4,389 nt of DNA from a virus (lineage: Duplodnaviria; Heunggongvirae; Uroviricota; Caudoviricetes), in the IMG/VR virus record IMGVR_UViG_2690316344_000010, positions 1-4,389 of that record. One strand, written 5' to 3'. Shown here in pieces: positions 1 through 3,000 of this stretch. The stretch's first letter is position 1; every line of letters starts with the position of its first letter. Made by a program: the position numbers.

Positions 1-3000
1 CCCCGTCAGTAGCTGAACAGGAGGGACAGCTGATAGAAACAGAAGCCACAGGAGCACCTCAAAAACACCATCATACACTAAATCAGTAAGTTGGCAGCAT
101 CACCTAAATCCTGTATGCAGTAATCATTTCTCCATATTTATGGCGAGACAAAACACTATTGCTCGCAACCTGGAACAGCAGATCAACAACGGACGAAGTT
201 TTGCACAAATATCTCAGGATTTTATGCTTCAATTATCTTCAAATATAGGATGGAAAAAAGGGGCCGAAAACGCCCTTAAAAATAAAATCCATTCTCATTC
301 ATTTGTTGTAAATCCTGATGAATTCTCTTGCGACACACAATTTCTTAAGTGCCCAATAACATTATGCGTTCCAGAAAAAGGGGTTTTTGTCAAGAACGCA
401 CTGAACTCCAACATATGCACTCTTTATGATAAGTCTGCATTCATGAATCTCACAAGAGAACATCTACCCCACCCTCTCAGCAGGGAAAAGATAGTAAAAG
501 AAATGATTATTGAAAGGAATATGTGTTATTTTGACACCATAAGTCAGCATTTCATAATTATGGATGCAGACCAACAGAAACAGCATTGTAAATAAAATGT
601 AATAATTACATACTATTAGTGATTCTCATGCATCGTAAGCGGCTCGCCAGAACCGTATTGATATTTACTGAGCGCTCAGATCAACTTTCCATGGCAACAG
701 ATCGCGTTCCCGGTTTGCCGGCCAGTCCTGGATATGCTCCCGCCGACAATATTAATGGCCAGGAAATGTTTAAAACAATGATTCTGTTTCCTAACCATCA
801 AGTGTATATGCTGGCTCAATTACTCAATATCTATGGGTTGAGTTCTACCCAAAGTGGCTCTGTAGTCGCTTCTTCTTACAGTATGTTCAGGTGTTGCAGG
901 CACAGTTGTGGAGCGTAGATGTGTTATTGGTTTACCATGCTCTGGTACATAAAAAACGCCAGTGCCATGGTAACCTGATATAGAAACGTTAATTCCGCGA
1001 CGTTCAAACTCGGCATAGACGTGTTCTGCTAAAGAACTCTTTTGACCAAATAATGCCCTAGCCAACCAGCCGTTATTCATATTTGCGGATTTCTCTATTT
1101 CATCAGGAGAGAAGTCTTTGTTTTTTAATATGTTGGCTGAGTTACAGGATGTTAATCTGATATCATCAATCTCATGAAGATTATGTTGAACAATGCGGTC
1201 GACAATATCTGTCGGCGATAAAAATTCATCTCCACACTTAAGAAGTGGTAGACCAGCAGAACCATCCCCAGACAGATAAATTTTTTTGTATTTTCCTGGT
1301 GTTAAATCATCTGGCAGGATGGTTTTCATCTCTGTCGCTGTAATACTTATAGCTGCAGCAGCAACAACATCGCTATTACTTGATTGTAGATGGCTTTTAT
1401 TTGCTCCAGGATATGTAAACTCCATTTTCCTTTTATCAAAATCTTGTTTTGTAGCATCATTCAGGAATAATAAATCATACGGTTTTTTCCCCGTTGTGAC
1501 TCTTGAAACATTTTGGCCAAGAATATTAAGAGTATAGTCATTAACGGATTTCATTCCTAAAAAAACAAGTAATCCTTCTTTCTCTTGCGCTTTTTCGATT
1601 GTTCTCCCTGCTAAAGTTATTGGGATGGATTGAGATTGTTTTGTCGGAACTGATACGCTGGCGCTAATAGGTAGTAGGGTTCTTATGCTAAACATACAAC
1701 CTCTTTCTTAATTTTCGAACCTGTTTAGGATTCTGTGTAAATTCAAAATAAACCTGTCTGAACATTCCTAACAAACATCCACCTGACATGACAACAAAAA
1801 CCGGAGCCGGACTCCGGTTTTTGTGAAGCTGTCGGCTATTTCATTCCGCCAATATTTTCCCACGTCCCGTCAGCACGCAGGATTTGCAGCGGTCTTACCA
1901 CGCACTGTATCTGCTTTTTATCCGCATCCAGTATCACCACCTGCGTGATTACCCTGTCCTGCTCCGGGATAATGCCATTCTCATCTGACTCCAGAATGTC
2001 TGCCGGTCCCAGTCGCAGCTGTGCTGTAAGTAACTCCCCGTCTTCACGGTCATCATGCTTTCCGCAACCGCACAGACGCTGCATAATTTTTTTTAATATG
2101 TTCATGTCATTCTCCTGTTCTGCCTGTATCACTGCCCACTTCATCCAGCCCCTTAACATCCTGCCACGGCCCGTCACCAAACCTGACCTGCAAATGCTGA
2201 AAAAAACCCTGAACCCGTGTGGCATCTTTGGGGGCAAGAAAGGTCAGTCCGGTGATGAGTGCGCCATCTGTATCCGGGAACCAGCCATTGCTGTTTGTCT
2301 CAATAATGTTTCCCGGCCCCAGACGGAACCGTATTTGTGTCTCCCCCGGGTCGCCCTTCGGTCCCTGAGGTCCGGTTGCCCCCACCGGGCCAGCCGCACC
2401 TGTTTCTCCTTTCGGTCCCTGTGGGCCTGCCGGGCCTGCCGCACCGGTATCTCCCTTTGGACCCTGTGGACCTGCATTTCCCGTCAGACCGGTCTCTCCC
2501 CGCTCTCCCCTGTCACCTTTCGGCCCCTGCGGGCCTGCCGGACCAGCATCACCTGCCGGTCCCCGTTCGCCGGTTGCCCCGACAGGGCCGGTGTCACCGC
2601 GCTCTCCCTTATCACCCTTCGGCCCCTGAGGACCCGCGGGCCCCTGTTCCCCCTTTGGCCCGGAAGGTCCCACCACGGTGGGGATTCGGTTTACGGCCTC
2701 TTCCGCCGCTATCCTGCTTTGTTCCGCTGACCGTGCGCTTTCTGCTGACTCCCGGGCTTTTTCTGCTGCGGTCGTTGCATCCCTGGCTGCATTACCGGCT
2801 GCACTTTCTGCCGTCTTTCTTGACAATTCAGCTTCTGCTGCACTTTGTGATGACTCACTGGCTTTTTGAGCGGCCGCAGAAGCCGAGGACGAGGACGCAT
2901 CCTCTGACTGCTTTGCTGAGGCTGCACTTTCTGCCGCCTGCCGGGCTGACTCCGATGCATCCTCTGCTGAAGTATCAGCATTTGCGGCGCTCGCTTCCGC

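Follow-up and report, generated by a model that had tools for sequence, protein, structure and literature searches.

A free-standing relative of the fibre knob, encoded directly behind collagen-like tail fibres of enterohaemorrhagic Escherichia coli prophages, is a candidate fibre-head companion

Introduction

What is made by the small gene that lies directly behind the collagen-like side tail fibre of enterohaemorrhagic Escherichia coli (EHEC) prophages, and does its product serve the fibre? The question is raised here by a stretch of 4389 nucleotides (positions 1 to 4389 of the IMG/VR virus record IMGVR_UViG_2690316344_000010, Caudoviricetes; 'the window' hereafter), which is the right end of the late operon of an EHEC-type lambdoid prophage, its phage genes from J onwards lying on the minus strand. 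The last of them encodes a protein of 89 amino acids (aa), which we call S throughout, while the fibre's own C-terminal knob is referred to as F. A preliminary description of the window, made from its sequence alone, had drawn attention to this open reading frame (ORF) because it occupies the position at which lambda carries tfa, but had not recognised its product, and had suggested that it could be a minimal tail-fibre chaperone or adaptor, or an unrelated moron.

The matter is of some general interest, as collagen-like fibres ending in the same kind of knob, together with the gene for S, are present in most EHEC prophages and in the Stx phages, by which Shiga toxin is spread. Should the fibre tip be modified by S, this could bear on the range of strains that gain Stx- and effector-carrying prophages.

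S resembles the knob of the fibre that precedes it

S (MNILKKIMQRLCGCGKHDD...GTWENIGGMK) is encoded on the minus strand between an ATG at 2105-2103 and a TAG at 1838-1836. Its residues 28-89 match the Pfam family PF06820 (Phage_fiber_C, here PfC) with 123.3 bits (E 5e-36) over profile positions 1-64, which is the whole of this 64-position domain and above the gathering score of 25 bits. At full length (residues 1-89 on positions 1-89) S is also a member of phrog_576, a small 'tail fiber protein' of the PHROGs collection (E 8e-60), and PGAP labels it 'phage tail fiber C-terminal domain-containing protein'. The protein that went unrecognised in the preliminary description thus belongs to a curated family and has been named by two annotation resources. 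The fibre upstream, in which PfN, a coiled coil, collagen repeats and a C-terminal knob follow one another, ends in PF06820 too (residues 365-428 of the ORF as listed, about 363-426 of the 437-aa form), and S aligns to it by BLASTP with 34% identity over 62 residues (E 2e-10). On these comparisons S is a free-standing paralogue of F, and its gene is real, conserved and previously annotated.

What F does not share with S is the N-terminal segment. Within residues 1-27, a short amphipathic helix is predicted at 3-11, and there are also a charged linker and an L-x-G-C motif, which is conserved (LCGC, residues 11-14, in the window; LFGC in the Salmonella orthologue discussed below) and absent from the fibre PfC. 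A further cysteine, at residue 68 within the PfC part (QIQC or QIEC), is kept in the S proteins of E. coli and Salmonella and is likewise absent from the fibre PfC. A superinfection-exclusion lipoprotein of the Cor/Llp type, whose genes are neighbours of receptor-binding genes, was considered and rejected on inspection of the sequence, the residues before LCGC (MNILKKIMQR) including three that are charged and forming no hydrophobic core.

Searches for other relationships of S were negative. PF06820 was its sole Pfam hit at E <= 1, so that neither Caudo_TAP (PF02413), the tail assembly protein family of chaperones, nor Gp38_N/GP38 (PF21721) was matched in the Pfam scan; NCBIfam and PADLOC scans gave no match, including none to a known exclusion or defence protein; and the PDB, searched by sequence and by profile, produced chance-level matches only (E >= 0.08). 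A phmmer search against 1.84 billion representative sequences yielded 59 matches, nearly all of them fragments of one narrow family, so a deeper alignment of S is unobtainable. The AlphaFold2 (AF2) model of the S monomer, built on a 10-sequence alignment, is of low confidence (mean pLDDT 56, pTM 0.31, the N-terminal 27 residues below 50). It is beta-rich over residues 28-89, and this predicted beta-rich character of PfC is the only point that the model shares with published circular dichroism data.

In a scan of genome contigs, matches were confined to Escherichia albertii and a single 725-bp contig assigned to 'Xanthomonas pisi DSM 18956' (NZ_JPLE01000138.1; L003). The S copy on this contig is 92% identical to that of the window, and most likely represents E. 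coli contamination of the assembly.

The junction between the fibre gene and S

The fibre gene ends in a TGA at 2109-2107 and is separated from the ATG of S by a single base (C, 2106), while a Shine-Dalgarno sequence, AGGAG (2116-2112), lies within the last fibre codons, 6 nt ahead of the ATG. Downstream of S, a hairpin with a 14-bp stem, flanked by runs of A and U on its two sides, has a folding energy of -24.3 kcal/mol (z = -5.9), equalled by none of 200 shuffled sequences; the hairpin (about 1794-1824) was missed by a simple terminator scanner. All these elements, the ORF at 1836-2105, the 1-nt spacing of its ATG from the fibre stop, the AGGAG and the terminator, are where the preliminary description had put them.

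The junction, ACAGGAGAATGAC followed immediately by ATGAA, is invariant in 82 of 87 related copies, and the terminator hairpin is kept in nearly all related loci, which begin to diverge directly past it. Over the last 11 fibre codons (2110-2142, the 33 nt before the ATG), synonymous diversity (pS) is 0.011, as against 0.10-0.13 in the adjoining coding sequence. This roughly tenfold reduction, though it concerns few sites, suggests a nucleotide-level constraint on the initiation region of S. We therefore picture S as being made from the same late mRNA as the fibre, by ribosomes that would end the fibre gene and re-initiate 1 nt downstream with the help of the Shine-Dalgarno sequence in its last codons.

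Some details of annotation need comment. The fibre most likely starts at ATG 3420 (MAVKISG, giving 437 aa), as in PGAP and in the literature on fibres of the EPclA type, rather than at the GTG (3426) two codons upstream that was chosen by an ORF finder. A longer version of the S ORF, of 133 aa from TTG 2237, was rejected, both the Salmonella orthologue and phrog_576 beginning at the methionine of MNILKK/MTIFKK. PGAP also records a 67-bp 'tail assembly protein' pseudogene fragment at 1769-1835 on the minus strand (L001 12070-12136). This stretch overlaps the hairpin of the terminator and is the same that is read through in variants of S that have lost their stop (P0001), and it has the look of an error of annotation, not of a relic of tfa.

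Might the two reading frames be joined by a programmed +1 frameshift or stop bypass at GAA-UGA-C, so that S would appear, fused to the fibre, in a minor form with two tandem knobs? Indeed, S is read in +1 to the fibre frame, not only in E. coli but also in Salmonella, UGA-C is a weak context for termination and has an element like a Shine-Dalgarno sequence upstream, and the four tandem PfC-like domains of a database protein (P0145, see below) make stacked knobs structurally possible. Moreover, the authors of a 2026 preprint on the Stx phage phi24B (10.64898/2026.04.10.717836) searched their peptide data for hypothetical fusions of the fibre with the S orthologue, gp59, and labelled the resulting protein group 'Spike or just gp59?'. 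Against this, there is no slippery site, and tRNA-Glu cannot re-pair from GAA to AAU; AGGAG, by inspection, overlaps the P-site codon, whereas in prfB the corresponding element stands 3 nt upstream; no frameshift signal was found in the corresponding genes of phage Sp5 by Mondal et al. (2016; PMC5155283); neither a fibre-S junction peptide nor N-terminal peptides of S are among the phi24B supplement peptides covered here, which run down to some of those with 3 spectra; the Salmonella junction is different, with a 14-nt overlap; and the geometry is accounted for by a canonical Shine-Dalgarno sequence and ATG. We regard a fusion as highly improbable.

S is under purifying selection and is inherited with PfC-ended fibres

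Selection on S was assessed among closely related EHEC prophages, copies being chosen by full-length match. Among the full copies in IMG/VR loci, together with that of the window, 86 of 87 are intact. For the 78 distinct alleles pS is 0.13, and the ratio of nonsynonymous to synonymous diversity (pN/pS) is 0.12-0.16 overall, falling to 0.07 in the PfC part and rising to 0.32 for residues 1-27; the corresponding ratio for F is 0.22. S is under strong purifying selection as a protein.

S and PfC-ended fibres are linked almost without exception, whichever of the two one starts from. Every copy of S for which upstream contig sequence is available has a fibre ORF before it, whether intact or frame-broken, whose end lies 1 nt from the ATG: these fibres include EPclA proteins of 386-441 aa, variants with other N-termini, EPclB proteins of about 645 aa, and the frame-broken copies. 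Conversely, S directly follows 71 of 74 PfC-ended fibres, and in the remaining three cases either the contig ends too soon (two) or S is frameshifted (one). In IMG/VR as a whole, relatives of S number 283 and relatives of the fibre PfC 286.

The association extends across phages with quite different tails. Over the stretch that begins with the collagen region and takes in PfC, S and the terminator (2656-1786), the window is 96% identical in nucleotide sequence to the short-tailed Stx2 phage VT2-Sakai/Sp5 (L002 6451-7320), while the virion-proximal half of the fibre, upstream of 2656, has no similarity to that of Sp5. From this it appears that the distal fibre and S move as one 871-bp unit between siphovirus-type and podovirus-type phages. 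The region has a match in 4802 of 5426 complete E. coli genomes, at up to 18 places per genome.

The DNA just beyond S has a history of its own. Degenerate fragments of the 3' end of S with a second copy of the terminator hairpin were found downstream of cargo genes (L006 5954-6100 and 8233-8340; L008 6048-6175; L033 9268-9380), and two or more copies of the hairpin are present in 27 of 160 loci, though there is only one in the window. Cassettes of type III secretion system (T3SS) effector genes thus look to be bracketed by direct repeats consisting of the S 3' end and the terminator, which suggests that the spot past S is a recombination site for the exchange of morons.

Could S itself, then, be no more than a silent reservoir or recombination cassette for the fibre knob, as proposed by Mondal et al. 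(2016), who wrote of 'an intragenomic reservoir sequence' (PMC5155283), or else a vestige of some past replacement of the fibre 3' end? Apart from the fragments behind cargo genes in those 27 loci, two natural recombinants may be cited in favour: in P0063 the collagen repeats are fused to the PfC of S at a GPA microhomology, by deletion, and P0128 is a hybrid of the S N-terminus with a fibre-type PfC. Such recombinants are rare (clusters of four sequences and one sequence), and at about 34% protein identity S and F are too dissimilar for frequent homologous exchange. A silent cassette would have no need of an invariant Shine-Dalgarno sequence and ATG, or of an N-terminal motif that is kept in the Salmonella orthologue (62-65% identical), and the idea accounts neither for a pN/pS of 0.07 nor for the peptides, reported below, that attest to translation. 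A reservoir or vestige is therefore, in our view, very unlikely.

A third tail type, and the slot behind the fibre

Only one clearly diverged orthologue of S came to light, a protein of 79 aa (P0126; 62-65% identical) encoded by prophages of Salmonella enterica subsp. salamae that are of myovirus type, having contractile-tail baseplate genes (sheath initiator and wedge). It scores 83.7 bits against PF06820 and retains the N-terminal motif M-x-I-[LF]-K-K-[IL]-x3-L-x-G-C-x-K. It is preceded by a 212-aa fibre (P0252) with a PfC head at residues 136-198; the two genes overlap by 14 nt, with AGGAGG 7 nt upstream of the start, and are followed by a hairpin and then by NleG/SopA-like cargo. A search of E. 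coli genomes for this Salmonella-type module gave no match. The pairing of S with PfC therefore holds in three tail types: the lambdoid siphovirus, the short-tailed Stx phage and the myovirus-type prophage of S. salamae. When the E. coli and Salmonella pairs are compared, identity is 65% between the two S proteins, 41% between the two F domains and 30-34% between S and F, from which it seems that S and F are old paralogous lineages that have been kept as a pair, S being the slower to evolve.

What occupies the place of S when the fibre has another head? Hundreds of fibres from Citrobacter, Salmonella and Kluyvera share the first 134 residues of P0252 (78% identity) but carry other heads (gp53-like, Collar or Pf2). 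In the two such sister loci that we examined, where the heads are gp53-like or Collar, the next gene, with a 1-nt gap or a 1-nt overlap, encodes a Caudo_TAP chaperone (96-106 bits). In phage Stx2-86 (L169 7174-10056), which has the Sp5 virion module, an EPclD-type collagen fibre has a Peptidase_S74 intramolecular-chaperone domain at its end; the next gene encodes a Gp38_N adhesin domain (orf22, E 1e-19), and a cor-like gene comes after it. The contents of these sister loci place S in what may be called a fibre-tip companion slot, exchanged along with the head that it accompanies.

This bears out one part of the preliminary interpretation, namely that the gene is fibre-related, is arranged for coupling to the fibre gene, and sits in the slot of lambda tfa, which in sister loci does hold a Tfa-family chaperone or a Gp38_N adhesin. 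Two of its suggestions as to function fare less well, the third, an adaptor, being conceivable. An unrelated moron would hardly travel with the fibre head in three phage types, inside the late operon and upstream of its terminator; and a minimal chaperone is at odds both with the lack of similarity to Caudo_TAP and with the experimental findings to which we now turn. The message for annotators is that the S gene should be called neither a tfa homologue nor a moron.

What might S do?

Ghosh et al. (2012; PMC3368898), who named the EPclA type for its order of PfN, coiled coil, collagen and PfC, showed by size-exclusion chromatography with multi-angle laser light scattering and by electron microscopy that isolated EPclA PfC is a trimer forming a distal globular knob. 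A fragment consisting of collagen and PfC quickly refolds its triple helix, PfC re-nucleating the collagen helix, and the collagen domain of EPclA melts in vitro at 42 °C, near host temperature. In phi24B the lateral fibres are assigned to gp61; the preprint treats their function as an open question, and the C-terminal knob was neither resolved nor confidently modelled there (10.64898/2026.04.10.717836).

Our preferred reading, to which we would give about an even chance, is that S acts physically with the fibre knob, as a head-specific companion of PfC knobs. S would be a small beta-rich trimer like the fibre PfC, but with a short helical stub at its N-terminus where the fibre has a shaft, and would fill, for PfC heads, the slot held for other heads by Tfa/Caudo_TAP chaperones or gp38-type tip adhesins. 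It would bind the distal knob weakly or transiently and, once there, either aid knob maturation or supply a second binding surface. A companion of this kind fits best as a functional analogue of the occupants of that slot, and not as a member of their families, because the tests with Caudo_TAP and gp38 hidden Markov models fail.

Several observations weigh against the companion reading and have to be set beside it. Full-length recombinant EPclA (rEPclA) folds into a trimer when it is produced by itself in E. coli (PMC3368898), so that help with assembly is not strictly needed. In Sp5, a short-tailed Stx2 phage, 43 gene sets were deleted in frame by Mondal et al. (2016; PMC5155283); the fibre gene, ORF67 (ECs1228, EPclB), proved essential, while the 89-aa ORF68 (ECs1229), which had its own deletion primers and is 92% identical to S, is listed as non-essential and is not among the defective mutants. 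In the proteome of purified phi24B virions the S orthologue is represented by two unique peptides, ADGTWENIGGMK and VITQVVILDADKK, which are the same in the S of the window, but with 3 spectra each; the S-specific spectra are at least 6, as against 2267 for the fibre group (10.64898/2026.04.10.717836), which is far below what a stoichiometric tip protein would give, and it is conceivable that even these trace peptides come from contamination. S is also more conserved than the knob that it supposedly contacts, which simple co-evolution would not predict, and an interface between S and the knob has no structural model in its favour.

It follows from the non-essentiality of ORF68, the autonomous folding of rEPclA and the trace level in virions that S is neither an obligatory chaperone nor a stoichiometric tip protein: plaque formation and lysogeny on laboratory K-12 do not depend on it. 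For the chaperone reading, published data largely give the outcomes that the preliminary description had named as refuting, no effect of deletion and absence from virions. A weak or conditional partner may be compatible with both the non-essentiality and the trace level. Peptides of S include LGPADILESDENGIIPEQDR, VITQVVILDADK and ADGTWENIGGMK, and TGEDMNILK is the putative junction peptide of a frameshift fusion.

There remain two ways in which S might serve the phage without being a lasting partner of the knob. It could be a facilitating assembly factor, a non-obligatory analogue of Tfa that acts as a self-like template or holdase, speeding or protecting, under natural conditions, the trimerisation of PfC and then leaving. 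The slot and the coupling geometry are those of Caudo_TAP chaperones, chaperones are typically absent from virions or present in traces, which fits the trace peptides of S in phi24B, and help in vivo could matter for a collagen domain that melts at 42 °C. But it is ORF67 that is essential in Sp5, and not ORF68; rEPclA trimerises on its own; and S is unlike any chaperone family in Pfam or NCBIfam. As it overlaps the companion reading, differing only in what happens after contact, we think it unlikely as a separate explanation.

The other possibility, which we judge rather unlikely, is that S acts outside the virion as a soluble, headless mini-fibre, a trimeric knob freed at lysis that binds some component of the bacterial surface; receptors on debris or nearby cells might, for example, be blocked in this way, or the surface primed. 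In favour, S lacks PfN and any other domain for attachment, is found only in traces in purified phi24B virions, and has an orthologue that is non-essential in plaque and lysogeny assays; the low pN/pS of its PfC part (0.07) fits a conserved target, and PfC holds the position of a receptor-binding head in modular fibre families. Surface binding by S is, on the other hand, conjectural; having no signal peptide, it would be unable to act before lysis; known exclusion and defence proteins gave no match; and neither the tight coupling nor the strict co-inheritance with the head would be needed.

Returning to the companion reading, one may go further and ask whether the Tfa-type chaperones and gp38-type adhesins are joined by a third class of companion at the fibre tip, represented by S: a 'self-like' paralogue of the head that would dock on the trimeric PfC knob or serve as its template, for instance as a stacked second knob, and whose function would come into play only on natural hosts bearing O-antigen, or at high temperature. 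This bolder version is possible but doubtful; if true, it would explain the apparent dispensability of S on K-12. The distant 565-aa database protein P0145, already mentioned, has its four PfC-like repeats one behind another, each about 80 aa long (64-72% mutual identity), with PF06820 found in four stretches, ahead of a collagen-like region. It shows that PfC-like domains can stack along a fibre, and as such is suggestive for a knob-on-knob arrangement, not evidence of one.

Gene layout of the window

The features of the window are collected in Table 1. In an E. coli chromosome that is 99.6% identical, the tail module upstream of the region is complete, extending from the major tail subunit to gpJ.

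Table 1. Genes and sequence features of the window
Feature	Position	Strand	Evidence or remarks
J, 3' end	from about 4151	minus	
lom	3485-4084	minus	Ail_Lom, E 2e-117
Collagen-like side tail fibre, EPclA type, 437 aa	2107-3420	minus	Pfam: phage_tail_N, E 2e-67; Collagen, E 5e-18; Phage_fiber_C, E 6e-36
Mobile module, 871 bp (collagen region, PfC knob, S and terminator)	1786-2656	minus	common to short-tailed Stx phages
Fibre's own PfC knob (F) and short C-terminal tail	2110-2334	minus	paralogue of S by sequence
Putative translational-coupling junction	2106-2116	minus	AGGAG, fibre TGA, one spacer base and ATG of S, by direct reading of the sequence
S, 89-aa ORF	1836-2105	minus	N-terminal stub (1-27) and PfC domain (28-89)
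Intrinsic-terminator hairpin with two-sided A/U runs	about 1794-1824	minus	closes the late operon, 11 nt past the S stop
T3SS effector cargo ORF, 291 aa	820-1695	minus	phrog_6583, 'T3SS secreted effector Ibe', full length, E 7e-203
NleG-family effector ORF, cargo	140-595	plus	T3SS_NleG, E 2e-48

The 291-aa cargo ORF is positioned directly beyond the late-operon terminator; it has no Pfam or NCBIfam match, and is a 'hypothetical protein' in PGAP. The NleG ORF corresponds in the near-identical genome to nleG7 (651 nt), with IS1203 before it, and the start of the window seems to fall within or just ahead of this gene. A GC-rich, terminator-like hairpin with a run of U lies between lom and the fibre gene (3437-3458, minus strand), so that transcription of the fibre and S genes would need either antitermination of the late transcript or a promoter of their own.

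Comparison with known systems

The S gene, then, is an entity already known and annotated. What is new here is the evidence of purifying selection, the two-way linkage, the pairing in three tail types and the occupancy of the slot in sister fibres, and the most useful of these is the co-swapping of S with its head over three tail morphotypes. Together they turn a protein that had been characterised in print only as 'non-essential' into the subject of a testable hypothesis.

The closest counterparts are copies of the same gene in Stx phages: ORF68 (ECs1229) of Sp5/VT2-Sakai, L0122 of 933W, gp59 of phi24B, and a 'putative tail fiber protein' of ArgO145. All are of 89 aa, are 92-100% identical to S (the ArgO145 copy being 100% identical), and follow a PfC-ended collagen-like fibre with the same junction. 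They differ in that their fibre is the 645-aa EPclB of a short-tailed phage, whereas that of the window is the 437-aa EPclA of a long-tailed lambdoid phage, and in that the window has T3SS effector cargo past the terminator.

The PfC domains of EPclA and EPclB (Ghosh et al., 2012) belong to the same Pfam family as S, and it is for the fibre PfC that trimerisation has been shown. S is set apart from them in being free-standing, with a non-collagen N-terminus of 27 residues, only 30-34% identity, and an orthologous lineage of its own.

With lambda Tfa and the Caudo_TAP proteins, S shares a gene position directly downstream of the fibre and arranged for coupling to it, in the case of S with a 1-nt gap and an internal Shine-Dalgarno sequence, and the habit of being swapped with the head. 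Unlike them, it is half the size, has no sequence similarity to the family, is homologous to the head itself, and has an orthologue that is not required for infectivity (PMC5155283). The gp38 adhesins of the T2/S16 type provide the remaining comparison. Stx2-86 has such a gene in the same slot after a collagen-like fibre, and S, being small, could likewise sit on the tip, perhaps by means of its N-terminal segment; but it has neither sequence similarity to gp38 nor hypervariable or Gly-rich segments, and is found in virions in traces, where gp38 is a stable component of the tip.

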